Source: a virus (lineage: Duplodnaviria; Caudoviricetes). Taken from it: 64,000 nucleotides of DNA. Under the pieces are notes generated by a model. That model saw nothing but the letters and a program-made list of their open reading frames with translations, was not told where the DNA came from and did no database searches. Below are positions 5,273 to 52,920 of the stretch, piece after piece. How positions within the stretch are numbered: position 1 is the first letter of the stretch; each line of letters begins with the position of its first letter. The translations under genes were made by a program, and so were the position numbers. The stretch is taken from positions 192,001 to 256,000 of the IMG/VR virus record IMGVR_UViG_3300028591_005215; one strand, given 5' to 3'.

Positions 5273-6142
5273 ATGGTTGCAGAATATATTATTAGACAAA
5301 TTCTACAGCGATATAAAATGTTGTGTACCAAATATCCGCAGTCGCCATCGTTCATACAAAATACTAAAGGTGACTCTTTTTATTTGATAAGTAATAGAGG
5401 TGAAGGTTTTCAGCCCACACAAATCAGACTATCAAATCATGGCACATATTTAGAGACATGGTGTGATAGAAACGAATTGGGCAATAGTGTAGAAAGGTTG
5501 AACCCTGCTCTCTGTACCAATATCTCTATCGTCTTTGTTGATGAAGGTGAAGATTTGACGAAAGATTGTAAAGGGATGCCAAATTGCGAAGGTTGTGAAA
5601 TAGAGCCATGTAAGCCACAAACGTTTGAGGGACAAGACCAAATAGGTAGACCATTCACCGTGATTCAATATGTATACAGTAGTAAATGTATCAGAAGAAA
5701 ATACATAAACGGCCTAACGAAAGCAATTGCGGAAGCGAGTACAAAAGGAAAATACATAGACCCACTTGCAGACCTTTATAGAGCTGCAAAAGAGAAAGAA
5801 TTTCACTCATCAACGAAATTACAAAATAACAAAGGGCTAAAGCCTGAAAATAGACAATATAAAAGAAATACAAATATGAGTAAAAAACTTATAAGATTAA
5901 CAGAATCAGACCTTCATAAGATTGTGAAAGAGTCCGTGAATAGAGTGATGAAAGAAGGAGTTGAATTTAGTAGTGAAGACCCTCAAGAAGAATGGATGCA
6001 TTATCAAAACAAATTACAACAAGAATTTGATGAACTTGGGTTAATGGTTCTGAACAAAATACCTAGAAACGACCCTGATAGACAAATAATTCAAAGGTAT
6101 ATTAGGATGATTCAAACACATTTACATACTTTAGAAAATTAA
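5273..6142 (+). CDS. Accessory protein with an internal KKLIRLTESDLH leader module (possible second start at 5876)
   Basis: 289-aa ORF; leader starts at aa 202; N-terminal part has S.Y...IRLSNH and a Cys cluster. Confidence 0.7.
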   Translation: MVAEYIIRQILQRYKMLCTKYPQSPSFIQNTKGDSFYLISNRGEGFQPTQIRLSNHGTYLETWCDRNELGNSVERLNPALCTNISIVFVDEGEDLTKDCKGMPNCEGCEIEPCKPQTFEGQDQIGRPFTVIQYVYSSKCIRRKYINGLTKAIAEASTKGKYIDPLADLYRAAKEKEFHSSTKLQNNKGLKPENRQYKRNTNMSKKLIRLTESDLHKIVKESVNRVMKEGVEFSSEDPQEEWMHYQNKLQQEFDELGLMVLNKIPRNDPDRQIIQRYIRMIQTHLHTLEN

Positions 6143-6320
6143 GCAGCCACAAGCCCAACCTTAATCTCAGACCACTTACAAACGAGTTAAATGGATTTTT
6201 CAAACATATTGGTAAATCTCTCTAATTCGCTCATTTTCTTGTATTCAAACGGCATACAGCATAGTCAATGTATGACTGAAGGTTCTCATCACTTACATCG
6301 TGATAGTAACTGCTAATCAT
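6139..6320 (-). pseudogene. Decayed C-terminal fragment of an IS1595-family (ISXO2-like) transposase
   Basis: Minus strand reads MISSYYHDVSDENLQSYIDYAVCRLNTR/KMSELERFTNMFEKSI*LVCKWSEIKVGLVAA*, matching YH.VS..LQ.Y.DE..(F)R.N.R; one frameshift and one internal stop. Confidence 0.7.
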
Positions 6321-6326
6321 ACATGC

Positions 6327-6382
6327 AATTCCTCATTAATTATAAGAATTAAAATATTTATAATTAATGAGGAATTTTTTTT
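6327..6382 (+). terminator. 19-bp inverted repeat followed by a T-tract
   Basis: aattcctcattaattataa (6327-6345) / ttataattaatgaggaatt (6358-6376). Confidence 0.7.
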
Positions 6383-6410
6383 GCTTTTAACAAAATTTAA
6401 TATATATTTG
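6380..6410 (+). promoter_or_regulatory. Bacteroidota-type -33/-7 promoter for the ssb-tdk-recA operon
   Basis: TTTG 6380-6383, TTAAC 6387-6391, TATATTTG 6403-6410; 19-nt spacer. Confidence 0.75.
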
Positions 6411-6466
6411 TATTGTAAAATTTAAGCACATATTGATGTGCATTATTAATATAAACATTAAACATT

Positions 6467-7465
6467 ATGAGTAACAATTTTGGCGTTAATATTGACGCAG
6501 CAGCTGTTATCAGTCAGAACGAGCGGGAAACATATGTACCTGCTAAAAAGAAAACTGAATTTAATCCAAAAAATTATTTGAACGCACGTCTTGGAAAAGG
6601 TGAAACAACAAAGAAATTGAGGATTAGGTTATTACCATTTTCAAAAGAAGGGGGGAGTCCTTTCCAGAAAGTATCAATTCACACAGTTAAAGCAACTAAA
6701 GAAGGTGGGCAAGGGTGGAGAACCTTTGTATGCCCTGTTCATTCACATAAAGGTGATAAATGTCCTTTCTGTGAAACATCTGAACAGGCTAAACAATTGC
6801 GTCTTAAAACAGTAAATGAAGTTGAAAAGAAAAAGTACGGTGATATTGAATTTATGAATCGTGCTAAAGACGCTTGGATTGTTAGATGTATTGAACGTGA
6901 CCATGAAGAAGATGGTGTTAAATTCTGGCTTTTTAATGCTTCACGAAAGAAAGATGGTGTTTATGATAAAATCATCAATCTATTTAATGAAAGATGGGAA
7001 GAAGCAAAAGAAGTTGGTGAACAGTACAACATTTTTGATTTGAATGACGGAAAGGATTTAAACATTACTTTATCTAAAGACCCTAATAATAAAACAGTAA
7101 TACAAATTACTGATGCTAGTAGACCATCACCACTTTCAACTGACTACGACCAAGCACTTTCATGGATTGAAGACCCTAAGAAATGGGATGAAGTTTATAC
7201 AGTCAAACCATATGATTATATGGCTATTGTAGTTCAAGGAGGGTATCCTGTTTTCGATAAGCAAACACAAAAATATGTTGACAAGGAAGAACTTGACAAA
7301 CGTAAGGAAATCGAAAAACAGCAAGAAATTACGGAAAACTATACTGAACAAAAGAAAGATTTTACGCAATTTGTCGAAGATAAAATCGAAACAGCAGAAG
7401 AGCCTGTTAAAACTGTAGGTACAGCTTCTAAAATGTTTGTAGATGAAGAAGATTTGCCTTTCTAA
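6467..7465 (+). CDS. Single-stranded DNA-binding protein, T4 gp32-like
   Basis: IRLLP...PF..H, C...CPFCE Zn site, GVKFW.F, FDL..GKD; acidic tail DEEDLPF. Confidence 0.8.
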   Translation: MSNNFGVNIDAAAVISQNERETYVPAKKKTEFNPKNYLNARLGKGETTKKLRIRLLPFSKEGGSPFQKVSIHTVKATKEGGQGWRTFVCPVHSHKGDKCPFCETSEQAKQLRLKTVNEVEKKKYGDIEFMNRAKDAWIVRCIERDHEEDGVKFWLFNASRKKDGVYDKIINLFNERWEEAKEVGEQYNIFDLNDGKDLNITLSKDPNNKTVIQITDASRPSPLSTDYDQALSWIEDPKKWDEVYTVKPYDYMAIVVQGGYPVFDKQTQKYVDKEELDKRKEIEKQQEITENYTEQKKDFTQFVEDKIETAEEPVKTVGTASKMFVDEEDLPF

Positions 7466-7491
7466 AATAATGATTAAGCATTAGACGGTTA

Positions 7492-8103
7492 ATGGCTAAA
7501 CTAACATTTATGTTCGGTGCTATGAATTCGAGAAAGAGCTTGGATTTGTTAGCAACTGCATATAATTTTGAAGAAAAAAACATACCTTTTATAGCACTCA
7601 AATCATCCCTAGATACAAGGGATGAAGGCGTTATAAGGTCAAGGGCAGGACTTGAAAGAAAATGCACAATTGTGACACCAGATGTCAATATTTATGAAGC
7701 AATTCATCAATATAATAATGTTTTAGCAGTACAAGGTGGTGAAACGTTAAAATGGATATTAGTTGATGAATGCCAATTTCTTACAGAAGAACAAATTGAC
7801 CAATTGTCTGATATTGTGGATTATATGAACATTACCGTGATGTGTTACGGATTGAGGACTGATTTTAAGTCACATTTATTTCCAGCATCTAAAAGACTTT
7901 TTGAAATAGCTGACAATATTGAAGAAATTAAATCATCTTGCGAATGTGGTAAGAAATCTATTATTAATGCAAGATTTGATAATAATAATAATGTTGTTAC
8001 AGAAGGCTCACAAATTCTTGTAGGTGGTAATGATATTTATCAGCCATTGTGTAGAAAATGTTGGAAAGAAAAAATAAGAGAAAGTAAAAAAGTTATGAAA
8101 TAG
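7492..8103 (+). CDS. tdk: Thymidine kinase
   Basis: GAMNSxKS P-loop, VDECQF, YGLRTDF, C-terminal CEC...CRKC Zn site. Confidence 0.93.
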   Translation: MAKLTFMFGAMNSRKSLDLLATAYNFEEKNIPFIALKSSLDTRDEGVIRSRAGLERKCTIVTPDVNIYEAIHQYNNVLAVQGGETLKWILVDECQFLTEEQIDQLSDIVDYMNITVMCYGLRTDFKSHLFPASKRLFEIADNIEEIKSSCECGKKSIINARFDNNNNVVTEGSQILVGGNDIYQPLCRKCWKEKIRESKKVMK

Positions 8104-9305
8104 TGGTTAAACAAGCTATAAAAAAGAAGAATTTTGCACGTCCATCAATCGCATCAATTAAGGAAAAGATGGGTCTTAATATTAAGAATGATGACTTAAC
8201 AGTTTCAAGTGCAAATAAACCTATTGAATTTATTACACTACCTGAAGCGTTCGTTAATGCAACTAAATTACCAGGAATTCCTAAAGGTGAATTGTCAATC
8301 GTATATGGGTGGAGTAATACAGGTAAAAGTACATTAATTAACTGTGTTATTGCATCTTGTCAAAAGTCAGGCATTTTGCCTGTTATATTTGATACCGAAT
8401 CACATTTTGATTTTAAATATGCTATTGATTGTGGTATGGAAGCAACACCTGTATATGGCGATGTGGAAGTTGAAGACGTTGATGAAGAAACAGGAGAAGT
8501 AACAGGTACACACACTGAAACACAAATTGTAAACTACGATGGTGATTTTATGTATTTTGACGGTGCTATCCTTTGTGAACTCTATGGTCATAATGATTAT
8601 TCGACAGGTAAAGAAACAAAGGTAAAACGAACAGTACCAGTTCTTGAAGATATTGCATATGCAATTAATAAAATTCTTGATATGCAAGATGCAGGTGAAA
8701 TTCAGCAAGATATTTGCTTCTTATGGGACTCAATTGGTTCAGTAATGTCTTATAAATCATTTGCAAGCAAGGTTGGAAATAATATGTTCGATGCAGGTGC
8801 TATGCAAACTGCATTTAATATGATTACAAATAATCGTATACCACTTTCTAAGAAAGTTAGTTCACCTTATACAAACACAATGTTCTGTGTAAATAAGATT
8901 TGGTTGGACTCTATGTCAGCACCTATGGCAGCACCTTCAATCGAATTGAAGGGTGGTAAGTCTATGTATTTTGCTGCGCACGGATTGATTATACAATTAG
9001 GTGGCGTTGTTAAGGCTTCAATTAAGCATCTTACGGCTACAAGTAAGGGACGTAATTACAATTGGGGTACATTAACTAAGATTAAGGTAATTAAGAATCA
9101 GTTGAGCACACCTTATAATCTAACTTATGAAGGAACAATGATTTGTGTTCACAATGGGTTGATTAGTGAAGACCAACAGGATGCTTATAAAAAGAATTAT
9201 GTGCCTAAGATTATGGCTGAACTTGAAAAGTCAGAAACTGGCCAAGATGTTGTAGTCGATTCAAAAGATATTACTTTTGATGAAAAAGAAGTTGATGAAG
9301 ATTAA
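8103..9305 (+). CDS. RecA/UvsX-like recombinase (GTG start)
   Basis: GIPKG...GWSNTGKS Walker A, FDTE, LWDSIG Walker B, KGG, KNQ. Confidence 0.85.
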   Translation: MVKQAIKKKNFARPSIASIKEKMGLNIKNDDLTVSSANKPIEFITLPEAFVNATKLPGIPKGELSIVYGWSNTGKSTLINCVIASCQKSGILPVIFDTESHFDFKYAIDCGMEATPVYGDVEVEDVDEETGEVTGTHTETQIVNYDGDFMYFDGAILCELYGHNDYSTGKETKVKRTVPVLEDIAYAINKILDMQDAGEIQQDICFLWDSIGSVMSYKSFASKVGNNMFDAGAMQTAFNMITNNRIPLSKKVSSPYTNTMFCVNKIWLDSMSAPMAAPSIELKGGKSMYFAAHGLIIQLGGVVKASIKHLTATSKGRNYNWGTLTKIKVIKNQLSTPYNLTYEGTMICVHNGLISEDQQDAYKKNYVPKIMAELEKSETGQDVVVDSKDITFDEKEVDED

Positions 9306-10573
9306 TGGGTAGTAAAAAAACATTAGCAGACTTTGCTAAAGATTTAAAAAATGTTTGGGGAGATAGGTATACTATTTCCCCAAATACTGTTTATGTAAAC
9401 ACACATACTAAATTAAAAATAATATGTAAAAAACATGGCGAATTTGATGCTGAGCCAAATAGTTTATTACATGGACACGGTTGTAAAAAGTGTAGAGCAG
9501 AAACTGTAGGTAAAGATAGAGTTTTAAAAAATGAAGACGTAATCAATAATATAAAAAAAATACATGGTGATAAATATGACTTGTCTAAAATAAACTATGT
9601 GAATGCAAGGACAAAAATTACACCTATTTGTAAAAAACATGGCATGTTTTATATTAGATATTCTGATTTAATGAATGGACATGGTTGCCCTATATGTAGT
9701 AGTAACATTTCTAATCCAGAAAACGAAATATATGAATTTGTCAAGCAATATTTTGATGACGCAATACATAATGATAAAACAATAATAAGCCCTTTAGAAA
9801 TAGATATATTTATACCTTCAATAAATGTTGGGATTGAATACAATGGATTAAGATGGCATTCAGAAGAATTTCAAAAAGATAAAAATTATCATCTCAATAA
9901 ACTTAATAAATGCAACGAAAAAGGCATAAAATTAATACAGATTTTTGAAGATGAATACATTGAAAATAAATCTTTAGTTAAAGAAAAAATATTACATATA
10001 TTAGGTGTAAATAATAACTTGCCAAAAATAATGGGTAGAAAGTGTACAATTAACGAAATTAGCAAAGAAGAAGCGGAAGTATTCTTGACAAAGAATCATA
10101 TACAAGGCTTTGCTAGTTCATCAATTTACCTTGGGTGTTTTTATAATGATTTATTGGTTGGCGTCATGTCTTTTCTAAAAGAAAAAGAAGGTTACTGGAA
10201 CCTTACAAGATTCGCATCTAATAATGAATATATTTGCAATGGTGTAGGTGGTAAATTATTTAAATATTTTACTAAAAAATACGACCCAATAGAAGTTAAA
10301 TCTTTTGCTGATAGAAGATGGACAACTAATCCTGAGGATAATTTATATATAAAATTAAATTTCAAGCTTACAAACATTTTAAGACCAGATTATAGGTATG
10401 TTTTTAGGAAAGAATACGGGTTAAAACGTGTGCATAAATTTAATTTTAGAAAACAACATTTGAACAGGAAATATGGTTTACCATTAACTATGACTGAGTC
10501 AGAAATGACTGAAGCTTTAGGAGCATATAAGATATGGGATTGTGGCTTATTTAAATATGTTTGGAAAAAATAA
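9305..10573 (+). CDS. Free-standing putative homing endonuclease: 2 Zn-binding repeats + PD-(D/E)XK (Vsr-like) nuclease + GNAT-like C-terminal domain
   Basis: ICKKHG.F...L.GHGCxxC x2; EIDIFIP...GIEYNGLRWH; FL..NHIQG...GVMSF...LTRF...GGKLFKYF...SFADRRW. Confidence 0.7.
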   Translation: MGSKKTLADFAKDLKNVWGDRYTISPNTVYVNTHTKLKIICKKHGEFDAEPNSLLHGHGCKKCRAETVGKDRVLKNEDVINNIKKIHGDKYDLSKINYVNARTKITPICKKHGMFYIRYSDLMNGHGCPICSSNISNPENEIYEFVKQYFDDAIHNDKTIISPLEIDIFIPSINVGIEYNGLRWHSEEFQKDKNYHLNKLNKCNEKGIKLIQIFEDEYIENKSLVKEKILHILGVNNNLPKIMGRKCTINEISKEEAEVFLTKNHIQGFASSSIYLGCFYNDLLVGVMSFLKEKEGYWNLTRFASNNEYICNGVGGKLFKYFTKKYDPIEVKSFADRRWTTNPEDNLYIKLNFKLTNILRPDYRYVFRKEYGLKRVHKFNFRKQHLNRKYGLPLTMTESEMTEALGAYKIWDCGLFKYVWKK

Positions 10574-10609
10574 TGAAAGAAACTTTTCATTCTTTTTTTT
10601 TGCTATAGA

Positions 10610-10616
10610 TATTTAT
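10610..10616 (+). promoter_or_regulatory. Putative late promoter (TATTTAT)
   Basis: 17 nt upstream of ATG 10634, just after a weak hairpin/T-tract. Confidence 0.5.
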
Positions 10617-10633
10617 TAATAAAAAATACTAAT

Positions 10634-11308
10634 ATGGCAAAGAAATTAATTAGACTAACTGAAAGTGATTTACATAGAATTATCGAAAACTCAGTAAAAA
10701 GAGTTTTGAAAGAAAGTCAATTGAATGAACTTGATTGGAGGACATACGCAAATGCATCAAGGAAATGGGCTGACCATTTAATGCAGCATCCAGATGACCC
10801 AAGAAGGAAATCTGGCATTGTAGGACATACTGATAGCACAGGTACGCATGATATTACTACTGATAATAGATTGAGGGGATTTAATGATGCTATGAGGAAG
10901 AGCTTTAATGATGAATATGGGTATAATGCGCTTACAAGTGATGAAGTTGAGAAAAATGGTCTTGGCATACGTGACAAAGAAGGGTATTATGAAATGCCTT
11001 TTGAAACTGATAATATAGGTATGCGTGGATATTATGACCACCTATCTACAGAAACAGGTACAAATGCACCTGGTGGTAAACGGCACAAAATTCACAGAAT
11101 GGAAGACCAATTTGACTTACCTAATATATCAAATGGTGAAACATCAAGTGAACCGCATCGTGCATATAATAAAAAAGGCACATGGTCTAAAGAAAGAAGA
11201 TATGATATGAGCCCAGTAGATGATAAATTTGATAGCTACCCTTATATGAGAGCAAGAAATAGAGGTAATAAAGCTATTATGGACTATCAAAAGAATGGAT
11301 GGAAATAA
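10634..11308 (+). CDS. Accessory protein with an N-terminal KKLIRLTESDLH leader (putative head-packaged protein)
   Basis: MAKKLIRLTESDLHRIIENSVKRVLKESQLNE followed by an unrelated domain. Confidence 0.75.
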   Translation: MAKKLIRLTESDLHRIIENSVKRVLKESQLNELDWRTYANASRKWADHLMQHPDDPRRKSGIVGHTDSTGTHDITTDNRLRGFNDAMRKSFNDEYGYNALTSDEVEKNGLGIRDKEGYYEMPFETDNIGMRGYYDHLSTETGTNAPGGKRHKIHRMEDQFDLPNISNGETSSEPHRAYNKKGTWSKERRYDMSPVDDKFDSYPYMRARNRGNKAIMDYQKNGWK

Positions 11309-11340
11309 AATCTGTTGAATGAAAATATTCATTGGTATAC

Positions 11341-11372
11341 AAATCCAACTCATTTCTGAGTTGGATTTTTTT
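11341..11372 (+). terminator. Intrinsic terminator
   Basis: aaatccaactca-tttc-tgagttggattt plus T-tract. Confidence 0.85.
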
Positions 11373-11384
11373 ATTTACCAAAAA

Positions 11385-11391
11385 TATTTAT
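11385..11391 (+). promoter_or_regulatory. Putative late promoter (TATTTAT)
   Basis: 19 nt upstream of the neck gene ATG, directly after a terminator. Confidence 0.55.
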
Positions 11392-11410
11392 TAGTAATAA
11401 GATTTAAATT

Positions 11411-12568
11411 ATGATTATTACAGATAAAGTAAAAGACTTATTTAAAATCGCCAGAACTTTATGCGGTGCTCCAATCAGAAGTGTCCAGTTAACTGATGAC
11501 CAAATGTGCGACTTGCTAAAAGTTGCTATTGGTGATTATGCTGAAGTTGTGCAAAATTGGGTAATTGAATCGCAATGGATTAATGCCCAAGGTAGTCAAA
11601 TGATGCTTAAAGACCCTTCACAAGCAGCGTATGCCCTTACCATTAGGACGTTAGATTGGTCAAGGGACTATTCGTATTGGTTTTCACGTGAAGTTGGACT
11701 ACAGCAAAGAGGTAATTATGAATTGAAGAAAGATTTCTTTAAAATTGAGGCTGGTAAACAAGTGTATATAATACCTGCAGGACGAGAAATAAATAAAGTA
11801 CTATATATAACACCATCAACAACAAAAGCAGCTCTATATGGAACGTATGGGTCGTTTGATGGAGGTTTTGCTGGTGGCTTTGGACAAGTAGGAGATATTA
11901 ATCACCCAATGGGAATGCTAGGTATGTATGTTGGGTCAGTTTATGATGTTGCATTGCAAGCTGCTGACTTGAAATACAAGAATTCATTAATTAGAGGTGA
12001 TATGGCATACGAAGTTACTGCTGGTCCTAATGGTACACATCTTGTACATTTACTTTCTACACCAGGTAGTAGAAATAGCATGGGCGGAGTTTCTGCTGAT
12101 GATAGTTGGGGATGGAATCAATTCAAAGATTGCTATTGCTGGTATACATACTATGACGTAAGTAATACTGATGAAGAAGGCGCTACACAATGCCTTATTG
12201 ACAATAAGGATGATGTGTTAATAACACCAGACCAAGTCCCTTTGGATGAAATGCAATATGAATTAATGAACAACCCTACGCAACAGATAATTAGGCAATT
12301 GTTTGTTGCTGAATGCATGATAACATTAGGTATTATAAGGGGTACTTACTCAGGTACAGTGAAAATCCCGCAAGCAGAGATGCAGATGGACTATCAGATG
12401 TTACTAGAAATGGGCAAAGCTGAGAAGGAAAGAGTGTTTAATAACTTGAAAGAAAGGTTAAATGAAATGCTTCCTTGGAATCAATTACAGCATCAAGCAG
12501 ACTTAACTGATAATTTAATGAAAGTTTTACAGCAAAAACCAATGCCATTTAATTTTATGGTGAGATAA
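11411..12568 (+). CDS. Neck/head-completion protein, T4 gp13-like
   Basis: LCGAPIRSVQLTDDQMCD...AI..Y N-terminal signature; G.IRG.YSG...IP near the C-terminus. Confidence 0.75.
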   Translation: MIITDKVKDLFKIARTLCGAPIRSVQLTDDQMCDLLKVAIGDYAEVVQNWVIESQWINAQGSQMMLKDPSQAAYALTIRTLDWSRDYSYWFSREVGLQQRGNYELKKDFFKIEAGKQVYIIPAGREINKVLYITPSTTKAALYGTYGSFDGGFAGGFGQVGDINHPMGMLGMYVGSVYDVALQAADLKYKNSLIRGDMAYEVTAGPNGTHLVHLLSTPGSRNSMGGVSADDSWGWNQFKDCYCWYTYYDVSNTDEEGATQCLIDNKDDVLITPDQVPLDEMQYELMNNPTQQIIRQLFVAECMITLGIIRGTYSGTVKIPQAEMQMDYQMLLEMGKAEKERVFNNLKERLNEMLPWNQLQHQADLTDNLMKVLQQKPMPFNFMVR

Positions 12569-12574
12569 TAATAT

Positions 12575-12612
12575 AAGGGATAATTATTTTGACAAATAGT
12601 TGTCCCTTTTTT
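12575..12612 (+). terminator. Intrinsic terminator
   Basis: aagggataattattt...aaatagttgtccctt plus T-tract. Confidence 0.75.
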
Positions 12613-12660
12613 CTTTTTTATAATATTTATTTATATATTTGCTAAAATGGCATAAAATGT

Positions 12661-14529
12661 ATGGATAAACAAGAGAGATTTATACAACGGGCAAATGTAA
12701 TACATAATAATAAATACGATTACTCAAAAGTAGAGTACAACTCAGCTAAAGAAAAAGTTTGCATTATATGTCCTGAGCATGGCGAATTTTGGCAAACACC
12801 AAAGCAGCATTTGAAGGGACATGGGTGTAAAAAATGTGCTTCAGCTTTATCAAGTAATAAAAGGTCTTCAACGAAAGAAGAATTTATTGAACGAGCAAAA
12901 TTAGTACATGGCGATAAGTATAATTATAGTAACGTTGAATACGTTAATAATTCAACACCAATTTGCATTATATGCCCTGAACATGGTGAATTTTATCAAT
13001 CACCTAAATCACATCTAAATGGGTCTGGATGCCCAAAATGTTTTGATGAAAGAAGACGTTACATAAGGAAATATGATACTAAACTTTTTGTTGAAAAAGC
13101 TAAATTGGCTCACAATGGCAAATACGATTATTCAAAAGTAGATTATAAAGATTCCAGTGCTAAGATTTGTATTATATGTCCTGAACATGGTGAATTTTGG
13201 CAAACACCTGCACATCATTTAAATGGCGAAGGGTGTCCTAAATGCGCTTTATCTGTAAAATCTGAAGAACAACAAATGACTAAGGGCAGCTTTGTTGAAG
13301 CAGCTAATAAAATACATAATAATAAGTATTCATACTATAAATTTATTTACAATGGTGGTAAAGAAAAGTCAACTATAATTTGTCCTGTTCATGGTGAATT
13401 TGAAATGACACCAAATGCACACTTAAGAGGCCAAGGATGCCCTATTTGTGGTATAGAAGCAACTGCTAATAAATTAAGAGGAAATAAAGAAGACTTTATA
13501 AAAAAATCTAAAGAAATACATGGTGATAAGTATGATTACTCAAAAGTTAATTATGTAAATTATAAAACTAAAGTAGAAATTATTTGCAAAAAGCACGGGT
13601 CATTCCTAATTACACCATGTAATCATATTCAAAATCAAGCAGGATGTCCTAAATGCACTCATCAGCAATCTAAATCAGAAAAAGAAATTTATGAATACAT
13701 AAATAATTTAAATGTCTTCTGCGAAGAAGGTGATAGGGGAATTCTTAAAGGGAGAGAAATAGATGTGTTTGCCCCAATATTTCGTGTTGGCATTGAATTT
13801 GATGGACTAAGATGGCATAGTGAATTGTATAGGGATAAATCTTATCACTTAAACAAGACAATTGAATGTGAAAATAAAGGAATAAGATTGATACATATAT
13901 TTGAAGATGAATGGCTAAATAAACGTGATATATGGGAATCAATGCTTAGAAATGTATTTCATAAAATAACAAATAAAATTTACGCTAGAAAATGTACTTT
14001 AAAACTTGTACCTGAACGTGATAAAAAAATATTTTTAAACGGTAATCATATACAGGGCAATGCTAATAGCTCAATTAATTTAGGGTTATATTATAATGAT
14101 GAATTAGTGTCGTTAATGACTTTTGGCAAACCAAGAATAAATATGGGTGGAAAAGATAAAGATGGGTATTGGGAGCTTGTTAGGTTTTGTAATAAAATAA
14201 ATACTTCAGTTGTAGGTGGGGCAAGTAAATTATTTAAGCATTTCGTTAAGAATTATGACCCAATTAATATAGTATCTTATTCTGATAAAAGATGGTCAAC
14301 AGGTGGACTATATGACAAATTAGGGTTTATACATGACCATGATTCAAAGCCAAATTATTATTATGTTATTAATAATGAAAGAAAAAATAGATTTGGGTTT
14401 AGAAAAGATAAATTAATTAAAGAAGGCTTTGATAAAAATAAATCAGAACATGAAATAATGTTAGAAAGAAAAATATATAGAATATATGACTGTGGATGTA
14501 GGTGTCATATATGGAAAAAATGTAAATAG
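12661..14529 (+). CDS. Putative homing endonuclease: 5 Zn-binding repeats + PD-(D/E)XK nuclease + GNAT-like domain; paralogue of 9305..10573
   Basis: Five H..KY.Y...Y...IICxxHG.F...P..H....GCxxC repeats; EIDVF...GIEFDGLRWH; NHIQG, ELVRFC, GGASKLF, SYSDKRW; TATTTAT (12624) and TATATTTG (12634) upstream. Confidence 0.75.
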   Translation: MDKQERFIQRANVIHNNKYDYSKVEYNSAKEKVCIICPEHGEFWQTPKQHLKGHGCKKCASALSSNKRSSTKEEFIERAKLVHGDKYNYSNVEYVNNSTPICIICPEHGEFYQSPKSHLNGSGCPKCFDERRRYIRKYDTKLFVEKAKLAHNGKYDYSKVDYKDSSAKICIICPEHGEFWQTPAHHLNGEGCPKCALSVKSEEQQMTKGSFVEAANKIHNNKYSYYKFIYNGGKEKSTIICPVHGEFEMTPNAHLRGQGCPICGIEATANKLRGNKEDFIKKSKEIHGDKYDYSKVNYVNYKTKVEIICKKHGSFLITPCNHIQNQAGCPKCTHQQSKSEKEIYEYINNLNVFCEEGDRGILKGREIDVFAPIFRVGIEFDGLRWHSELYRDKSYHLNKTIECENKGIRLIHIFEDEWLNKRDIWESMLRNVFHKITNKIYARKCTLKLVPERDKKIFLNGNHIQGNANSSINLGLYYNDELVSLMTFGKPRINMGGKDKDGYWELVRFCNKINTSVVGGASKLFKHFVKNYDPINIVSYSDKRWSTGGLYDKLGFIHDHDSKPNYYYVINNERKNRFGFRKDKLIKEGFDKNKSEHEIMLERKIYRIYDCGCRCHIWKKCK

Positions 14530-14557
14530 CAGAAATTATAATCTGCTATTTTTTTTT
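14524..14557 (+). terminator. Intrinsic terminator
   Basis: aaatagcaga...tctgctattt plus T-tract. Confidence 0.75.
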
Positions 14558-15896: not shown

Positions 15897-15897
15897 T

Positions 15898-16734: not shown

Positions 16735-16753
16735 TTTTTTACGGAACATATAA

Positions 16754-44913: not shown

Positions 44914-44915
44914 TT

Positions 44916-45812: not shown

Positions 45813-45816
45813 TCAT

Positions 45817-45851
45817 AAAAACCTTGCTTAATAATTAAGCAAGGTTTCTTT
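45817..45851. terminator. Bidirectional terminator between convergent genes
   Basis: aaaccttgcttaat-a-attaagcaaggttt, overlapping the sbcD stop. Confidence 0.75.
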
Positions 45852-46652: not shown

Positions 46653-46675
46653 ATTTAACTTTTATTAATATAGTG

Positions 46676-46706
46676 CAAATATATCTAAAATTATGTTAAA
46701 ACCAAA
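46676..46706 (-). promoter_or_regulatory. Bacteroidota-type -33/-7 promoter for sbcD
   Basis: Minus strand: TTTG (46706-46703), TTAAC (46699-46695), TATATTTG (46683-46676); 19-nt spacer. Confidence 0.7.
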
Positions 46707-46707
46707 A

Positions 46708-46714
46708 TATTTAT
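46708..46714 (+). promoter_or_regulatory. Putative late promoter, back-to-back with the sbcD promoter
   Basis: TATTTAT 19 nt before ATG 46734. Confidence 0.5.
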
Positions 46715-46733
46715 ATTAAAAGTTTTTTTAAAA

Positions 46734-48812
46734 ATGGTAGATAGTAGAAAAAGAAAAGTTGAATGGGAAGGCGAAATACCTGCGTCTGCATTGTCATGGG
46801 TATCATTTGTCGAAACAGACAGCTATGGTTACGAATTCACTACTGACGAAGATGGTAATGGCAAAATTATCGTTTCATCTGATGATAATGATGCAAAACC
46901 TATAGATTATGTGAAAATAAAATTACAACCTGCATATGGCAAACCTGGGGATGCTGACTATAGAACTTGTTCTATTAAATTCAAACAGCTTGGTTTTGCA
47001 AATCCAAAAACATGCGAAGCACACATTAAACAAAAAGTATTAAATTCATACAGGAATGATTTGTTTTACAAAGTATTGAAAGATGCTACACCACATTTAA
47101 ACTTTAAAGAAAACGATAGAAGCATAAATGATAGCACTGGCTTTGATTATAGTGGTGGCACAATACAATTTGATTGGTATTTTGAACTTGAATACATTGA
47201 TTATTGCTACTATTCAGGTACTAATATTCTTGCAGTAGATGACAATGGTAATTATATACAATCAGGTACAACTAAAGAAAAATGTACGTCATCAGAAAAT
47301 GCGGTGTGGGAATGTAATAACAAAAACGCAATAATATATGATGATGGAACATTATTAATGGGTGATGTCAGTGAAGACACTATATTTGACGTTACACTTA
47401 AATATAAAGGGTATGATAAAGAAGCTAAACAAACAGTTAGGCAAACTAATAATACAAAAAATGTTACTTATAGGGTTAACACTAACATAAAAGACGCTAA
47501 TGTAACATTTAATTATTATTATAAAAAGGCATATACTACTGTTAAATTAGCCGATGGGATAAGTGATAAAAAACAATATGTCTTTAATGTAGAACCACCA
47601 ATTTTAAACTTTACAAATTCTACAGATATAAAATATGTAACAGTAGATTCGTTACGCTCATCTAATGAGCCATTATATTATGCTGAATGCGAAATACCAC
47701 AAATTGCGACAGATGTCACAGCTTCAATACAATATAGTGGCATTAAAGATAAGCACTATAACATATCAATTGAGCCAAATACGTGGAACGCTAATTTGTC
47801 TGACGAATTAAATGTAACTGTATCAGCTTCAGAAACCGTGTCTGAATATGATGGCACTAAAGTATCAATTAGTTTTGAGGAAAATGTTTATGAAAAAGAT
47901 ATTATCATCAAAACTGTTACAACAAATAGCTTAACGCCTTATTCAGTAAGCTTACCAGAAAATGTTGAAGACTTATCTGAAGGGAAAGGTACTAATCTAA
48001 AAATTACATCAGATAATGTGGTTGGTGTTGCAAAATATTCAGTTAATGCAGATACAAATGTTTATGATACATTAACTATAAGCCGTAACATACCTAAAGA
48101 ATATGTGTTTACTTGGAGTGATGGCACTACTACACCAAAAGAAATTGATTTGGAATATAGTGATGATGTTTTGAAGAGAGTAATAAGCAATGTAATATCT
48201 ACATATGGTGGTGAAACCAACGATTATACGTTAAGCTGCGCTAATAACAATGTATTAATTGATAATTCCACAAAAACAGTTTCTTTTAAATCTAAAAGCA
48301 CTTATGTTGATGCAACATATTTAACAACACCATATAAGGGAAATGGTTTTACTAAATCATATGGGTTTGTTACTAAATATGTTATATCATTAACGCAGTC
48401 TAATAGTGCTAAAAAATTAACATTAAATGTGAATTATTATCACAAGTCACCTTGTGATATACATTTTTCTAAAAATAATAATAAACAATTGCTTATTAAA
48501 ATAAATGATGGCGCTACTAATAAATTACCTAATAGCGTAACTTATTATAGTTTTGATATTACAGCACAATATACAGTAAATAATGAACCTTATGACCCAT
48601 CTAATGTTAAATCAATTACAGATATATTAGACCCATATTTTTCATCACATTTGTATGCTATATCAAATTACATACCTGAGTTGTCTGAACCAAGTGTATA
48701 TATCTATGATTTTAGACTACCAAATAGTACACTTAATCGGTCAAATATAAACGAATATTTACCAAATGAATGGTATACTGAATATAATGAAATTATAGAC
48801 GAAAATAATTAA
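46734..48812 (+). CDS. Ig/BACON-like repeat virion protein (fibre/adhesin candidate); paralogue of the next gene
   Basis: Shares K.EW.GEI...W.SF...GYE..T...KIIV..DDN, F.QLG and TY.VNTNI.NA..TF blocks with 48815. Confidence 0.55.
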   Translation: MVDSRKRKVEWEGEIPASALSWVSFVETDSYGYEFTTDEDGNGKIIVSSDDNDAKPIDYVKIKLQPAYGKPGDADYRTCSIKFKQLGFANPKTCEAHIKQKVLNSYRNDLFYKVLKDATPHLNFKENDRSINDSTGFDYSGGTIQFDWYFELEYIDYCYYSGTNILAVDDNGNYIQSGTTKEKCTSSENAVWECNNKNAIIYDDGTLLMGDVSEDTIFDVTLKYKGYDKEAKQTVRQTNNTKNVTYRVNTNIKDANVTFNYYYKKAYTTVKLADGISDKKQYVFNVEPPILNFTNSTDIKYVTVDSLRSSNEPLYYAECEIPQIATDVTASIQYSGIKDKHYNISIEPNTWNANLSDELNVTVSASETVSEYDGTKVSISFEENVYEKDIIIKTVTTNSLTPYSVSLPENVEDLSEGKGTNLKITSDNVVGVAKYSVNADTNVYDTLTISRNIPKEYVFTWSDGTTTPKEIDLEYSDDVLKRVISNVISTYGGETNDYTLSCANNNVLIDNSTKTVSFKSKSTYVDATYLTTPYKGNGFTKSYGFVTKYVISLTQSNSAKKLTLNVNYYHKSPCDIHFSKNNNKQLLIKINDGATNKLPNSVTYYSFDITAQYTVNNEPYDPSNVKSITDILDPYFSSHLYAISNYIPELSEPSVYIYDFRLPNSTLNRSNINEYLPNEWYTEYNEIIDENN

Positions 48813-48814
48813 TC

Positions 48815-50857
48815 ATGAATAAAAAAATAGAATGGTACGGTGAAATAACAGGTGATGGGAGAACTTGGCTATCATTTACTTATGATGATACTAAGGGTTA
48901 CGAATATGACACAACCACTAAACCTAAAAAAATAATAGTAACTACAGATGATAACAATGGAAGCTTAACTGACATAATTGGGTTGGATTTAGAACCAAAT
49001 ACAACACAATATATTAGAAAAACAAACGTTGAATTTTATCAGTTAGGCGGGAAGCATATATCTTACGAAGTTACACAAAAAGTAGGGCATAGTTTTATTG
49101 AAACGAGTACTTATGAAGAAATATCTACTTGGGTATTTAATTCAATGTCAATTTCACCTGTTAGTGAAACGTGTGAATGCGACACTACTGAATACACATT
49201 TAAAGCAATTTATTCTCATAAGCCTAAATATGTAACATATTCTAAAGGGTATTATGCTGATAATCCTGATGAGGAAATTAAGATAGTTAAAAGTGAAAGA
49301 TATGGTGATGTACAATATATTTCAGACCCATCTAAATTTATTTGGGCTACAGATAATGGCACTATAACTAATGGTAAGTTAACATTTAATGAAAATGTAG
49401 ATAGGAACAATTATGTTTTATATAACGTAACTGCAACATATAGAGATAATTATAATGAAAAAAACGCAACTGGCGTACTAAAGCAAAAAGCAAATGACAA
49501 AACTGCAACGTACACGGTTAATACTAATATACCAAATGCAACAGCAACATTCACAATTGATAACGAAATTATATCAGCTATAACAGTAGCATATGTTTCT
49601 GATAATGAATATACAGCCATTTGTGAAGGACCTTTAAATTCATCTTTAAAAGTAGCTATTACAGGTAGTAAAAATGAAATAATCACTTATTCTTTAGATG
49701 TGTCACCAAAAAAATGGGATATTAAGGAATCAAGTGCATTAACGGTAACAGTTACAAGTAATAAACATGTTGAAGAAAATGATTTTTCTAACAACTCTTA
49801 TACGTATCCTGATAATATATACAACGCTACTATCAATATAAATAGAAAAACAAGTGATAGTGAAGCATCTTATTCAGCTATTCTTCCTGATGGTATAACT
49901 GATGAATCGGTAGATGGCAATTTTACATATCTAAAAGCTGCTGAAGGGAGTTTAAAGGATGGTGGCGAAATAACATATTATTTAACTGAATCTGAAGACA
50001 TAAAAGCTAAGATAAGTGTAAGTAATTCAACAAGTGATGACAAATTTTTGGAAGATAAGATGATGACATTAGTTTATGACTATGGTATAGTTGGTAGAAC
50101 TTTAGAGACAAGGCCTCAGATTATGCTTTATAGGTCAAAAACTAATAGTAGCGTAGAAGCAATATATGTAGCCACAACATCGCAATCTACTCTTCATCAG
50201 GGGACATTTGATGTTATAGAAATTAAAAAAACTGACAAAACATATATAACTGACGATGGTACTTTTTATGTTTTAAACATTTCAAATCATCACGAATTAG
50301 TTGTTAATGGTAATAAAGTTATAGTTTTTTTAAAGCTTATAGGTGATGACGTACCAGATGAAATGCAATACTATAACGGAAATATAACAGCAGTAAGAAT
50401 ACCTACGCCATATACAAAACTTGATAATGCTTGTTTGTATTGTAACACCAGCTTGCATCATTTGTTTTTAGGGAATACAATTAGTTTACTTGTATCAGAT
50501 TGTTTAGCAGGTTTTGCTTCAATAAAAGAAATATATTTTGGCTATGAAGAAGCGCCTACTTTGAATAAAGGTAACGGTACAGGGCATACTTTTAGAGATA
50601 CTTATAGAAACTCGCAAGCATCAAGTAAAGATTGCATTATTTATGGAGTGAAAGGAAGTTATGATAGTTATCATGTTGATAGTAATGACCCTTGGCAATG
50701 GGATGGGTGTATATATGCTGACGTTTCAGGTCGTTCAGATATTAACAATAATACGAAAACATGGAGGATTGATACTGACACTTATACAGTAGATAAAGAA
50801 CTTGAAATCTTCAAGGAAAAGGTAATTAATGCTAATACAGGTGACCCTATTGTATAA
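48815..50857 (+). CDS. Ig/BACON-like repeat virion protein with C-terminal BspA-type leucine-rich repeats
   Basis: ITAVRIP...LDNACLYCNTSLHHLFLGNTISLLVSDCLAGFASIKEIYF...APTL pattern. Confidence 0.55.
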   Translation: MNKKIEWYGEITGDGRTWLSFTYDDTKGYEYDTTTKPKKIIVTTDDNNGSLTDIIGLDLEPNTTQYIRKTNVEFYQLGGKHISYEVTQKVGHSFIETSTYEEISTWVFNSMSISPVSETCECDTTEYTFKAIYSHKPKYVTYSKGYYADNPDEEIKIVKSERYGDVQYISDPSKFIWATDNGTITNGKLTFNENVDRNNYVLYNVTATYRDNYNEKNATGVLKQKANDKTATYTVNTNIPNATATFTIDNEIISAITVAYVSDNEYTAICEGPLNSSLKVAITGSKNEIITYSLDVSPKKWDIKESSALTVTVTSNKHVEENDFSNNSYTYPDNIYNATININRKTSDSEASYSAILPDGITDESVDGNFTYLKAAEGSLKDGGEITYYLTESEDIKAKISVSNSTSDDKFLEDKMMTLVYDYGIVGRTLETRPQIMLYRSKTNSSVEAIYVATTSQSTLHQGTFDVIEIKKTDKTYITDDGTFYVLNISNHHELVVNGNKVIVFLKLIGDDVPDEMQYYNGNITAVRIPTPYTKLDNACLYCNTSLHHLFLGNTISLLVSDCLAGFASIKEIYFGYEEAPTLNKGNGTGHTFRDTYRNSQASSKDCIIYGVKGSYDSYHVDSNDPWQWDGCIYADVSGRSDINNNTKTWRIDTDTYTVDKELEIFKEKVINANTGDPIV

Positions 50858-50926
50858 AAAAATAAATATAAAAGTAGACTTTTTTTTTCAGTGATATAGA
50901 TATTTATTATTGCAAAGTTTGTTAAT

Positions 50927-51262
50927 ATGAATATAATAATAGAAAGAGTTATTTCGCAAACCATTAATAAGCTCATCAACGAAAACTGTTCAAGGTCATC
51001 AGTCATAACAGAGAACGATGGTGATGATATGGGTATCTACAAAGAACTTGATGATAAGGTTATTGATATTTGTTATCGTCATGATTTCAATGTACAAACA
51101 AGAGTTGGCAACGATTTGGCATATTATGCATTTTTCATTGCAGATGACAGACTACCAAAAGTTCAAGAATCAATACAAATGTTGGAGAAACTTGGACTAA
51201 GAAGAATCAATAATGGGACTTTAAGCGGAACAATACATTATTACACTATAGATTTTCACTAA
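50927..51262 (+). CDS. Small accessory protein with a degenerate leader (IIERVISQTINKLINE)
   Basis: TATTTAT at 50901-50907; its stop codon is the first 3 nt of the IS element. Confidence 0.65.
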   Translation: MNIIIERVISQTINKLINENCSRSSVITENDGDDMGIYKELDDKVIDICYRHDFNVQTRVGNDLAYYAFFIADDRLPKVQESIQMLEKLGLRRINNGTLSGTIHYYTIDFH

Positions 51263-52600
51263 ATAACGTTCCAAGGATGCCCACACGCTTTAGCGGTGGG
51301 AGGAATTGGAACAAATTTTTATTTTTTTTTTTCTTATTTATTTAAACTTTTAAAACTTTCTTTATATTTATAATAAGAAGGGTATTTCCCTTGAGTGAAT
51401 AAAAACACATGACGTACAGAACATATAACATAGAGCTACAAATGAGTGACACAACACACAACTATTGGATGAGCCTATTGACTCAGACAATGGAAGCTTA
51501 TAACTGTTGTGGCAACATCGCTGTACAACAGCAAATACCACTAGGTATTAAGCCCTTCCATGATAATTTGTATGGTATAATCAGAAAGAAGTTCCCACTG
51601 ATTCCAGCACAAGGTGCAATAAAAACTTATAAGGAAGTCCTTTCAACACTCAGAGCAATCAGAGGTAACAAACATAAGAACGCCTCAGTTCCTCAACGTA
51701 AACAACTGTCATTACATCTTGATAAAAGAATGTATTCAAGACTTTCCATTGATGGTATATCCTTGACAACTGAAGTAAGAAACAAACGTGAGTTCTGTAC
51801 ATTTATCCTCTTCGACAAGGTGAGAGAATTATTCTCCACTTGTGTCCCAAAAGACCCTACAATCTTTGCTCGTAACGGTAGACTATTCCTTTCAGTATCT
51901 TTCGAGGTTCAATCCTTGCCTTGCAAGGATGACACCGCAATCGGTGTTGACCTTGGAATGAAGAGATTCTTTGTCACCTCAGAAGGTAAGTCCTTCGTTG
52001 ACAAGAATTACTTGAAACAACGTAGGAAACTACGTTATTTGAAGCGTTGTCTCCAGAGCAAATGTTCTCATTCATCCAAAAGGCATCTTCAACGTTTATC
52101 CCATAAGGAACGTAATGTTTCCAAGAGCCAAGTTGAAAAAGCTTGCAATGTGCTACTTCGTAGCACCAATACAAGTATTCTTGTATTGGAAGACCTTACG
52201 AAGATTAAGACGAAGACTTCCAAGACAAAGGAAGGTTTTAAGAGGACAAGACATAACAATGCCTTGTCTCAAGTCCCATTCTATATGTTCAAAGAACGCT
52301 TGACCAATAAGGCACAACTCGTTGGAAAACGAGTTGAAACAGTTTCTCCAGCGTTTACAAGTCAGACTGACAGCCGAACAAACAAACGTAATGGCATCCG
52401 CCACGGATGCAATTATATATGTTTTGATGGTGTTGTCCTTGATGCTGATTGGAACGCTGCGGTCAATATTGCACTTCGTGCAAAACACCCACTTTCGAGC
52501 AGCGAGCTGCCCTTAAGTGGCAGGGTGCGGTCAATCACCCAATCGTCAGAAGCCTAACGGCTTTATGGCAAGCCACTGACTTTAGGCAGTGGTAGTTGAC
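51260..52600 (+). mobile_element. IS200/IS605-family non-autonomous element (tnpB only, IS1341-like); predicted TAM TCAC
   Basis: LE hairpin CCCACACGC-TTTA-GCGGTGGG preceded by GATG, predicting cleavage after TCAC (51256-51259); RE hairpin CCACTG-ACTTTAGG-CAGTGG preceded by CAAG, predicting end TGAC (52597-52600) by IS608 guide rules; GC-richer than flanks. Confidence 0.85.
51409..52557 (+). CDS. tnpB: TnpB RNA-guided endonuclease
   Basis: RuvC triad intact: GVDLG, VLEDL, DADWNAA; Zn finger degenerate (TSQTDSRT...ICFDG). Confidence 0.92.
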   Translation: MTYRTYNIELQMSDTTHNYWMSLLTQTMEAYNCCGNIAVQQQIPLGIKPFHDNLYGIIRKKFPLIPAQGAIKTYKEVLSTLRAIRGNKHKNASVPQRKQLSLHLDKRMYSRLSIDGISLTTEVRNKREFCTFILFDKVRELFSTCVPKDPTIFARNGRLFLSVSFEVQSLPCKDDTAIGVDLGMKRFFVTSEGKSFVDKNYLKQRRKLRYLKRCLQSKCSHSSKRHLQRLSHKERNVSKSQVEKACNVLLRSTNTSILVLEDLTKIKTKTSKTKEGFKRTRHNNALSQVPFYMFKERLTNKAQLVGKRVETVSPAFTSQTDSRTNKRNGIRHGCNYICFDGVVLDADWNAAVNIALRAKHPLSSSELPLSGRVRSITQSSEA

Positions 52601-52620
52601 TAAATAACGAATTAAATACG
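52480..52620 (+). ncRNA. Predicted omegaRNA (reRNA) scaffold plus guide (guide starts 52601: UAAAUAACGAAUUAAAUACG); 5' end approximate
   Basis: Hairpins CTGCC/GGCAG, AAGCC/GGCTT and the RE hairpin; GTCAA (52530-52534) can pseudoknot with terminal TTGAC. Confidence 0.65.
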
Positions 52621-52629
52621 TATTGAAAT

Positions 52630-52920
52630 ATGACTAAGAAACTTATAAGACTAACAGAAAGTGACCTTCACAGGATTGTGGAGAAGTCAGTAAACAGAAT
52701 ATTGAAAGAATCTGATGATTTTAAGCCAACAGGTTATAAAACCGCATCTAACCTTGGTGGGCATGAGGTGCAAATAAACCCTTCTGGTGACTCTGCTCGC
52801 TTTAAATTCTATGGTGGCGAACCAACAGATTGGATGGAAATAGAATTTGATGAAGATGGCGTTGCATATGTTGAGACAGAAAGAGGTCGTGAACTATTAT
52901 CAGACTATATGAGATATTAA
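52630..52920 (+). CDS. Accessory protein with an N-terminal KKLIRLTESDLH leader
   Basis: MTKKLIRLTESDLHRIVEKSVNRILKE followed by a ~65-aa beta-rich domain. Confidence 0.75.
   Translation: MTKKLIRLTESDLHRIVEKSVNRILKESDDFKPTGYKTASNLGGHEVQINPSGDSARFKFYGGEPTDWMEIEFDEDGVAYVETERGRELLSDYMRY

Follow-up and report, generated by a model that had tools for sequence, protein, structure and literature searches.

A portable leader peptide on unrelated proteins of T4-like rumen phages: a candidate capsid-targeting propeptide with links to an IS1595-family transposon

Leader genes of the window and their relatives

The window analysed here is a stretch of 64,000 nucleotides (nt), positions 192001–256000 of a single viral contig of 279,749 bp with 30.6% GC (IMG/VR record IMGVR_UViG_3300028591_005215). 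Three of its open reading frames (ORFs), at 5876, 10634 and 52630, begin with the same leader of 27 residues, M-x-KKLIRLTESDLHRI(V/I)xxSVxR(V/I)LKE, or, in its fuller form, M-x-KKLIRLTESDLH(K/R)I(V/I)xxSVxR(V/I)(L/M)KE. In each copy, 21–23 positions agree with a 25-residue consensus, and BLASTP found no mutual similarity among the parts that follow the leader in the copies of this genome. This confirms the sequence-only reading, an earlier account of the same DNA made without database searches, which had described a leader fused to unrelated cargoes at these three places. A six-frame search allowing up to 10 mismatches gave no leader match in the window beyond them.

Unless stated otherwise, the features of the window lie on the plus strand. 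Copy 1 of the leader (5876–5956) is preceded by a module of ~200 amino acids (aa), the N-module (5273–5875; motifs R-x-SNHGT-x-L-x-x-W and QYVY), which is joined to it in-frame through the linker ENRQYKRNTN, and is followed by cargo 1, a 61-aa predicted helical hairpin (5957–6142). A near-identical cargo 1 has a different N-module in front of it in protein P0244, and in an alignment of 11 members of the N-module family (A3) the leader is fused in 10, with a truncated leader (MNKKLIRLT) in L143. Copy 2 (10634–10714) leads into cargo 2 (10715–11308), a recurrent cargo of the LDWRTYANA...GW(K/Q) family that is also found behind leaders in P0167, P0176, L026 and G001. Copy 3 (52630–52710) is followed by cargo 3, a conserved small domain of 68 aa (52711–52920). 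A word-based search with the 96-aa protein encoded at 52630 returned, apart from the window's own protein, 37 full-length relatives located on contigs of up to 384 kb, together with ~80 proteins that are alike in the leader alone (60–93% identity) and then continue with unrelated sequence. In distant orthologues of cargo 3 the leader drifts along with the cargo, and Glu10 and Glu27 stay at 90% or more.

The sequence-only reading had placed a terminator downstream of each carrier and had regarded the carriers as richer in GC than core genes. Strong terminator-like hairpins were found after cargo 2 (intrinsic type, 11341–11368, a 12-bp stem and then a T run) and between cargo 3 and the primase gene (bidirectional, 52935–52966), but only a weak one after the 5876 gene. 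Likewise, the GC contents of the 10634 gene (0.354) and the 52630 gene (0.378) lie above the genome mean of 0.306, but the contrast with the neighbouring core genes (0.30–0.37) is weak and the leader and cargo part of the 5876 gene (0.307) is not enriched.

In the whole genome, nine copies of the leader were detected at E ≤ 3e-15 with a hidden Markov model (HMM) of the three copies and a strict jackhmmer search of the six-frame translation. A tenth, truncated copy lies at genome position 147807, where MNKKLIRLT runs straight into a paralogue of the 10634 cargo. Several copies are located among tail genes, at genome 154–172 kb. Type A leaders (5876, 52630 and genome 154538) use codons as in the copies of the insertion sequence (IS) described below, and type B leaders (window 10634; genome 64874, 94387 and 158382) use the A/T-rich codons typical of the phage. 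Over 78 nt, DNA identity is 78% for 5876/52630, 65% for 5876/10634 and 77% for 10634/52630, with 7–11 synonymous codon differences per pair; the conservation at the DNA level that had been reported is therefore real but partial. Most leader pairs within the genome are 50–80% identical, with exact runs of merely 5–17 nt, one pair excepted; the 52630 leader and the genome 154538 copy have 95% nt identity.

Five further ORFs had been thought to start with degenerate versions of the leader. The one at 60314–60595 (MLINESTIHKILMETINEFINE) remains a marginal candidate with 13.4 bits against the leader HMM, above the maximum of 9.6 bits in a control of 579 internal segments. ORF 50927 was rejected, as its 5.2 bits lie inside the control range, and so were 4762, 59716 and 59940, which fall outside the 30 best N-termini listed (lowest listed 1.5 bits) and are indistinguishable from background.

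A 32-column profile of the leader (A1) was searched against 1.84 billion cluster representatives (protein clusters at 50% identity), which gave 5,834 leader-bearing clusters at E ≤ 1e-3 and 1,459 at E ≤ 1e-10. Many of the best matches have two to four leaders per chain, arranged as leader-cargo-leader-cargo, and the leader is often internal, between two cargo modules. A conserved linker, NESKN or ENKQYKxNTN, stands before internal leaders, and the internal repeats include some half-leaders (ESKLSRIVKESVNRILKE). The cargoes are small, with a median of 82–112 aa; Asp, Arg, Gly, Pro and Gln are frequent in them, and Cys and Ile/Leu/Val scarce. For 127 leader-protein representatives, Pfam and PHROG matches were almost absent, and no family in either collection spans the leader; Pfam also gave no informative family for the three carriers, the N-module, the minus-strand ORFs of the IS, or the scaffold and the acidic leader protein of the head module. 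On viral contigs, of up to 412 kb, the leader is encoded at no fewer than 210 loci, and the five leader-bearing genomes searched have 4–18 leaders each. The phages concerned form a clade of 240–410-kb T4-like phages of rumen Prevotella/Bacteroidales. The leader motif was not found in any paper by a full-text literature search. An HMM scan of the genome and its relatives had been suggested in the sequence-only reading for its idea of a portable tag on arbitrary cargo; this idea is now strongly supported by the number of clusters, the few Pfam and PHROG matches and the selection on the peptide described next, and the leader is not confined to one orthologous family, the cargoes being mutually unrelated.

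The codon analysis covered 158 unique DNA copies, taken from this genome and from the loci retrieved. First and second codon positions are nearly fixed at I6, R7, D12, L13, I16, V17, S20, V21 and E27 (E27 in 148 of the 158 copies), and third codon positions of the leader have an entropy of 0.5–1.8 bits. L8, T/S9, E10 and H14 are invariant or nearly so in the profile alignments A1 and A2. Conservation ends abruptly past E27, the 30 nt upstream of the leader are not conserved, and the opening codons are A/T-rich. As the third codon positions vary while the amino acids are fixed, selection acts on the leader peptide and not on the DNA.

A model of the 289-aa fusion of N-module, leader and cargo 1 has an overall predicted local distance difference test (pLDDT) score of 66. 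In this model the N-module is a folded alpha/beta domain (pLDDT 70–87), and the linker is disordered, MSKKLIRL included; an isolated helix then spans the leader from Thr/Glu to Lys-Glu, and the helical-hairpin cargo comes after it. The predicted shape of the leader is thus a short basic stretch (KKLIRL) and then an N-capped amphipathic helix (TESDLHRIVKESVNRILKE). Neither a Foldseek search of the PDB nor a wide structural alignment with the fusion model gave a fold match for the N-module, and the structural search with cargo 1 returned generic helical-hairpin matches alone (Z<8). Neither ribbon-helix-helix (RHH) nor any other Pfam family matched among 130 leader proteins, and the conservation covers one helix only.

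The N-module of copy 1 belongs to an uncharacterised family of ~170–200 aa which, beside the two motifs given above, has the motif G-x-Y-x-DP and a confident, unmatched fold. It occurs at window 5273–5875 and genome 147258–147746, in the loci L087, L105, L110, L094, L100, L106 and L095 and in the proteins P0159 and P0189. Weak Foldseek rows for this module include several PD-(D/E)XK-type nucleases, none of them significant.

Head module, promoter motif and cleavage-type motifs

A Peptidase_S77 (T4 gp21-type) prohead protease is encoded at genome 95679–96392 (PF03420, 75 bits) and a gp23-like capsid protein at genome 98301–100283 (PF07068, 214 bits; solved T4 gp23 structures at E ~1e-27). The gene between them encodes an extremely acidic, scaffold-like protein of 526 aa, and the portal gene lies at genome 88469–91849. 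Between the portal and protease genes stands a leader gene with a very acidic cargo (genome 94387–94707), at the position where T4 encodes its small core proteins gp67 and gp68. Leader genes are also found by the protease gene in relatives: 3–4 beside it in G004 and G001, and two in G003 and one in G005 within ~4 kb. The N-termini of the scaffold are conserved among G001, G003, G004 and G005. An S77 protease is present in eight of the nine leader-bearing viral records judged at least 90% complete. The shorter leader-bearing contigs were rated 11–73% complete, most of them below 40%, which suggests that they are pieces of genomes of similar size.

Two upstream motifs stand out in the genome. 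The first, TATATATTTGC, which we take to be a Bacteroidota -7 type promoter, lies upstream of the SSB and primase genes and of many small genes. The second, (G/A)ATATTTAT(A/T), is located 23–50 nt upstream of the portal, protease, scaffold, tail sheath and baseplate hub genes and other large genes, and ATATTTAT also precedes the leader genes at genome 64874, 94387, 134175 and 202634. The last of these is the window gene 10634, in which the motif occupies 10609–10616, 25 nt before the start codon. Moreover, 61 of 101 stand-alone viral leader genes have ATATTTAT upstream, with a sharp peak at 24–30 nt. Its position suggests that ATATTTAT is a late promoter. A phage sigma-70-family factor (regions 2 and 4), encoded at window 57933–58658, is a candidate reader of the ATATTTAT or TATATATTTGC promoters.

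The S77-type proteases of T4, phiKZ, 201phi2-1 and SPN3US cut after Glu with few other determinants, and the propeptides of gp21-family substrates often contain several cleavage sites (PMC5694885, PMC9026906). In T4, proteins of the head bear N-terminal propeptides of 10–19 residues that confer affinity for the core, and in the capsid-targeting sequence (CTS) of IPIII residues 4 and 7 matter in targeting and residues 8 and 10 in processing (PMC9026906). The leader has L8 and E10, both imposed by the pattern that collected the 158 copies. Its hydrophobic-x-Glu motifs are LTE at 8–10, VKE at 17–19 and LKE at 25–27, the last followed mostly by Ser, Gly or Ala; their presence is not proof of cutting. 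With HMMER, residue 28 of mature T4 gp23* aligns with residue 72 of the capsid protein of this phage, so that the T4 maturation cut maps between residues 44 and 45. The sole [LIV]KE of the capsid protein, at residues 42–44, falls exactly at this gp23-equivalent cleavage position. In the scaffold, [LIV]KE is found at 12–14 and 26–28 only, and in the protease at 36–38 and twice at the extreme C-terminus, which ends IKEILKE and fits the self-processing known in the S77 protease family. The end of the leader may accordingly be read as a protease site, for which the positional coincidence in the capsid protein is the best available, if circumstantial, argument; the capsid proteins of five relatives have the IKE as well, but since their entire N-terminus is conserved this is of little further weight. 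As a possible gp22-like mark, the density of [LI]xE in the scaffold was also considered and proved unremarkable (rank 54 of 294). The connection to a T4-like head that the sequence-only reading had drawn is supported by the S77 protease, the gp23-like capsid protein, the eight of nine relatives, the promoter motif and the hydrophobic-Lys-Glu (Phi-K-E) motifs.

Other genes of the head module were recorded as well. The portal gene encodes 1,126 aa, with portal homology at residues 61–344 and an HNH endonuclease module at ~442–711 (L129), which suggests an inserted intein or a fused homing endonuclease. A Dps/ferritin-like ('starvation-inducible') gene (genome 94722–95447, L142) lies between the acidic leader gene and the prohead protease gene. 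In two relatives, stand-alone frames far from the capsid gene resemble parts of the capsid protein: residues 1–36 with 75% identity (G004:C1:250385-250492) and residues 267–407 with 33% identity (G002:C1:254702-255091).

An IS1595-family transposon around the leader

One genome per prokaryote species was scanned for the leader. The 41 bacterial loci obtained are nearly all in rumen/gut Prevotella and other Bacteroidales and include the cultured Segatella bryantii DSM 11371, Prevotella sp. MA2016 and Prevotella sp. tf2-5. At ~24 of them an IS1595-family transposase gene stands directly after the cargo gene and is convergent with it, and the intact transposase of L087 has the Pfam domain DDE_Tnp_IS1595 and an N-terminal zinc ribbon. 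The layout of the element was derived by comparing copies: the left inverted repeat GGCAACTATATA... is followed by a small ORF on the minus strand and an N-module that varies between copies; linker and leader come next, and after them a cargo, again variable, then the transposase and the right repeat. Intact copies carry both repeats, and the ends of L110 show an AAACTAA duplication. IS copies whose transposase genes are 91–93% identical have unrelated N-modules and cargoes, and the leader alone is common to them (~90% over ~92 nt).

At the bacterial loci, ATATTTAT lies no more than 80 nt upstream in 17 of 32 leader-containing ORFs, compared with 11 of 312 ORFs without a leader. Among 301 sampled genomes of the same family, the leader was found beside 6 of ~12 transposase copies that are at least 55% identical and beside none of 18 more distant ones. 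The three cultured isolates have one leader gene each; MA2016 and tf2-5 have one intact transposase of this subtype each, and S. bryantii has a remnant only. On the viral side, transposase sequence is present at ~10 of 79 loci, and at one of the 9–10 copies in this genome. One IS1595 sublineage thus carries cassettes of motif, leader and cargo in Prevotella chromosomes and phages, which is a new observation: a literature search on IS1595 passenger genes in phages returned nothing relevant, and no description of leader/promoter cassettes was found in it. The minus-strand ORF just inside the left end is a second passenger of 135–180 aa, variable, often ending in NEQPNQ and belonging to no Pfam family (L087 2777–3310, L086 3154–3564, L106 2969–3436, L110 2962–3501).

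In the window, the region 5173–6322 is a decayed relic of such an element and not an IS. A remnant of the left terminal inverted repeat at 5173–5202 (CTATATAGAAATTAGACCCAAATAAGTGAG) matches the repeat (GGCAACTATATAGAATTAGACCCTAATAAATGA) of intact elements at the Prevotella loci L087, L092 and L110, and a remnant of the transposase gene lies on the minus strand at 6157–6320. The latter is frameshifted and covers the C-terminal ~55 aa, without the complete DDE_Tnp_IS1595 domain and zinc ribbon; with the L087 transposase as query, tblastn gave 79% identity over residues 270–298 and 46% over 297–324, and blastn of the remnant matched L087, L086 and L090. A search of the window with the repeat consensus did not find the right IS end. 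The N-module and the first 61 nt of the 5876 leader are 95% identical to the chromosome of Prevotella sp. MA2016 (L087 3365–4062 = window 5240–5937); the homology breaks inside the leader, near codon 21, and the cargo differs. Upstream of 5273 and 5876 there is no exact ATATTTAT-type motif, so that expression of this copy may be poor.

The 52630 gene is linked to the transposon in another way. In a Prevotella metagenome-assembled genome (L086), the counterparts of window positions 50870–51268 and 52596–52711 adjoin each other within an element's passenger region. The segment 50900–51262, made up of a ATATTTAT motif (50900–50907) and ORF 50927–51262, forms a two-gene unit with the 52630 leader gene, and its region is 91% nt identical to L086 3584–3981, directly before the leader gene inside the IS1595 element. 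This unit is split by an inserted TnpB element of 1.3 kb (51269–52595; tnpB at 51409–52557, Pfam OrfB_IS605 and Cas12f1-like_TNB), which parts the leader gene from the motif at 50900. Two of the three window carriers (5876 and 52630) are transposon-linked cassettes, and the 10634 gene is a resident type B copy with its own motif and strong terminator. Of the selfish elements that had been noticed next to the carriers, the IS1595 remnant and TnpB were confirmed, and the zinc-ribbon homing-endonuclease gene at 9305–10573 is supported.

The TnpB (IS605 OrfB/Cas12f-like) is a solo one, inserted exactly between two genes that are adjacent in the Prevotella IS1595 passenger region, and the 72 nt past tnpB (52558–52629) may contain the 3' part of a TnpB guide RNA. 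The homing-endonuclease genes with zinc-ribbon repeats (PHROG HNH/homing endonuclease, Mom-like region) at 9305–10573 and 12661–14526 flank the putative late genes at 10634–11411, and similar large genes are dotted through the head module (genome 91850–92833 and 100403–101914).

Proposed function, alternatives and significance

We lean, if only slightly, towards reading the leader as a capsid-targeting propeptide like the CTS of T4, longer and far more widely used, with cassettes partly spread by a transposon. Leader genes would be transcribed late, from the promoter type common to head and tail genes, and the leader would bind a conserved component of the assembling prohead core, by which the fused cargo becomes enclosed. 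The gp21-type (S77) protease would then cut after Glu at L-T-E10, V-K-E19 and/or L-K-E27 and release the cargo within the head, from which it could be ejected together with the DNA. An internal leader would carry two modules at once, which cleavage would separate. The IS1595 sublineage would move cassettes of motif, leader and cargo between phage genomes and host chromosomes and reshuffle modules at the leader. The distribution of the leader, the selection on the peptide, the head-module context, the common promoter motif, the matching cleavage-type motifs and the architecture of the transposon are observed; core binding, encapsidation, cleavage, ejection and the roles of the cargoes are inferred.

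It is worth noting, however, that several points speak against this reading. It is built on genes, and the phages have no cultured relative: megablast of window 5000–13000 and tblastn of the leader gave no match in GenBank phage records. The leader has 27 residues compared with 10–19 in T4 propeptides. In this Lys/Glu-rich proteome [LIV]KE occurs at 0.18 per 100 aa, and because it is so common the motif argument depends mainly on one exact coincidence in the capsid protein. The invariance of L8, T/S9, E10 and H14 among the 158 copies is no evidence, as the collecting pattern fixed these residues, and ATATTTAT is assigned as a late promoter by its position only. One leader-bearing record that is 95% complete (G035) gave no S77 protease match. 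The three cultured isolates also have no detectable S77 protease, and a capsid tag would have no obvious use in protease-free chromosomes unless a phage infects.

The leader could instead be a general docking or oligomerisation helix for another hub, such as the tail or baseplate, the capsid exterior, DNA or a host enzyme, without head loading or protease processing. The modelled leader, an isolated amphipathic helix with a basic N-terminal strand, suits such a role, and its pattern loosely recalls the strand-helix start of RHH proteins; it can occupy a mid-chain position, several copies lie among the tail genes at genome 154–172 kb, and late expression would suit any virion-associated or late-acting protein. 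Nevertheless, we consider this rather unlikely, given that no Pfam family, RHH included, matches the 130 leader proteins, that conservation halts exactly at a Glu with a hydrophobic residue two positions before it and small residues after it, that Phi-K-E also marks the predicted maturation site of the capsid protein and the termini of scaffold and protease, and that leader genes cluster most tightly beside the prohead protease. A fixed 27-aa head on thousands of unrelated bodies is hard to square with a role in transposition, and it is improbable that IS1595 has an accessory or regulatory protein whose conserved part is the leader, with the phage copies mostly leftovers of past insertions. 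Just ~10 of 79 viral loci and one of the 9–10 genome copies have transposase sequence; about half of the sampled copies at 55% transposase identity or more have the leader, and none of the 18 more distant ones; and type B leaders use phage-typical codons and the promoter motif of structural genes and, in several phages, hold syntenic positions within the head module. Such a role would nonetheless account for the convergent transposase at ~24 of 41 bacterial loci, for the inverted repeats and target duplication around the whole unit, for the pairing of the sole copy of this transposase subtype (in S. bryantii the remnant) with the sole leader gene in the three isolates, and for the IS link of two of the three window carriers.

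The last alternative, that the block is conserved for its nucleic acid, as a site of recombination for cassette exchange or a translation-initiation or RNA element, and that the peptide is a by-product, we regard as very improbable. The proposal of the sequence-only reading that the repeated DNA serves as a recombination platform for cargo swapping is supported only in part. Mosaic junctions do lie at the leader: the MA2016 element of Prevotella and the phage cease to be homologous inside it, near codon 21, and IS copies with 91–93% identical transposase genes have only the leader in common; the first leader codons are also A/T-rich. However, the third codon positions are free to vary while the amino acids are fixed, the leader pairs of the genome, one excepted, are 50–80% identical with exact runs of 5–17 nt, and there is no conservation in the 30 nt upstream. 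In our view, recombination at the leader follows from its conservation and does not explain it.

One close counterpart of the leader is the CTS of T4 (IPI–III, Alt and other gp21-processed head proteins), likewise a short N-terminal peptide on unrelated, fast-evolving small proteins; the internal proteins of T-even phages are a diverse set with the CTS alone in common (PMC3012670). This phage, too, encodes a protease of the gp21 family (S77) and a gp23-like capsid protein together with an acidic scaffold; its leader genes carry a putative late-type promoter motif, and the leader has hydrophobic-x-Glu motifs with Leu8 and Glu10, the two pattern-imposed residues, at the processing positions (PMC9026906). 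The likeness is one of architecture and is not demonstrated in sequence. In contrast to the CTS, the leader, with its greater length and up to three candidate sites, is found on thousands of cargo families and not on a handful, is often internal or repeated two to four times per chain, and occurs on a transposon and in host chromosomes.

The propeptides of inner-body and ejection proteins of phiKZ, 201phi2-1 and SPN3US are also comparable, in that the phages are giant ones whose S77-related protease cuts after Glu, and in that several redundant sites are often present in each propeptide (PMC5694885, PMC9026906). SPN3US gp53 and gp54 are paralogous head proteins with identical N-termini, and the protease of such phages processes its own C-terminus (PMC5694885, PMC9026906), to which the IKEILKE end of the protease described here may be compared. 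Unlike the leader, these propeptides are often longer than 100 residues and family-specific, with no single portable tag, and the phage described here, known from genes and not from proteomics, is T4-like and not phiKZ-like. In encapsulins, a short portable cargo-loading peptide is sufficient to load unrelated cargo into an HK97-fold shell, but such peptides are usually C-terminal, bind the shell directly and are not cleaved, and the cargo is not ejected. The transposon resembles other IS1595-family IS in its DDE_Tnp_IS1595 and zinc-ribbon transposase, terminal inverted repeats, short target duplication and extra genes between the ends, and some IS1595 subgroups carry passenger genes (ISfinder). 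It differs from the known elements in that its passengers are modular cassettes around a phage leader and the promoter motif of phage structural genes.

A further and unlikely extension is that the IS1595 sublineage is a shuttle for the phage late promoter, leader and cargo, whose chromosomal copies would be silent until a jumbo phage infects, and would then be switched on by phage late transcription and loaded into progeny heads. Phage heads would in that case carry proteins that a transposon of the host encodes, and this transposon would be the driving force behind a very large and quickly reshuffled library of injected proteins; such loading might amount to payment of the phage with a useful injected effector, to hitch-hiking on the transposon's part or to host sabotage.

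As a capsid address tag, the leader would make thousands of uncharacterised proteins candidates for delivery into Prevotella with the phage DNA. They would provide a ready-made catalogue of likely host-takeover and anti-defence effectors in the rumen and gut, and the T4 principle of a conserved tag with diverse cargo would be extended to an unprecedented scale. The tag could also serve as a tool to package foreign proteins into Bacteroidota phages. The link to the transposon is new; it would show how cargo libraries pass between phages and hosts and how their modules are reshuffled, and it raises the possibility that genes of the host chromosome contribute proteins to phage particles.

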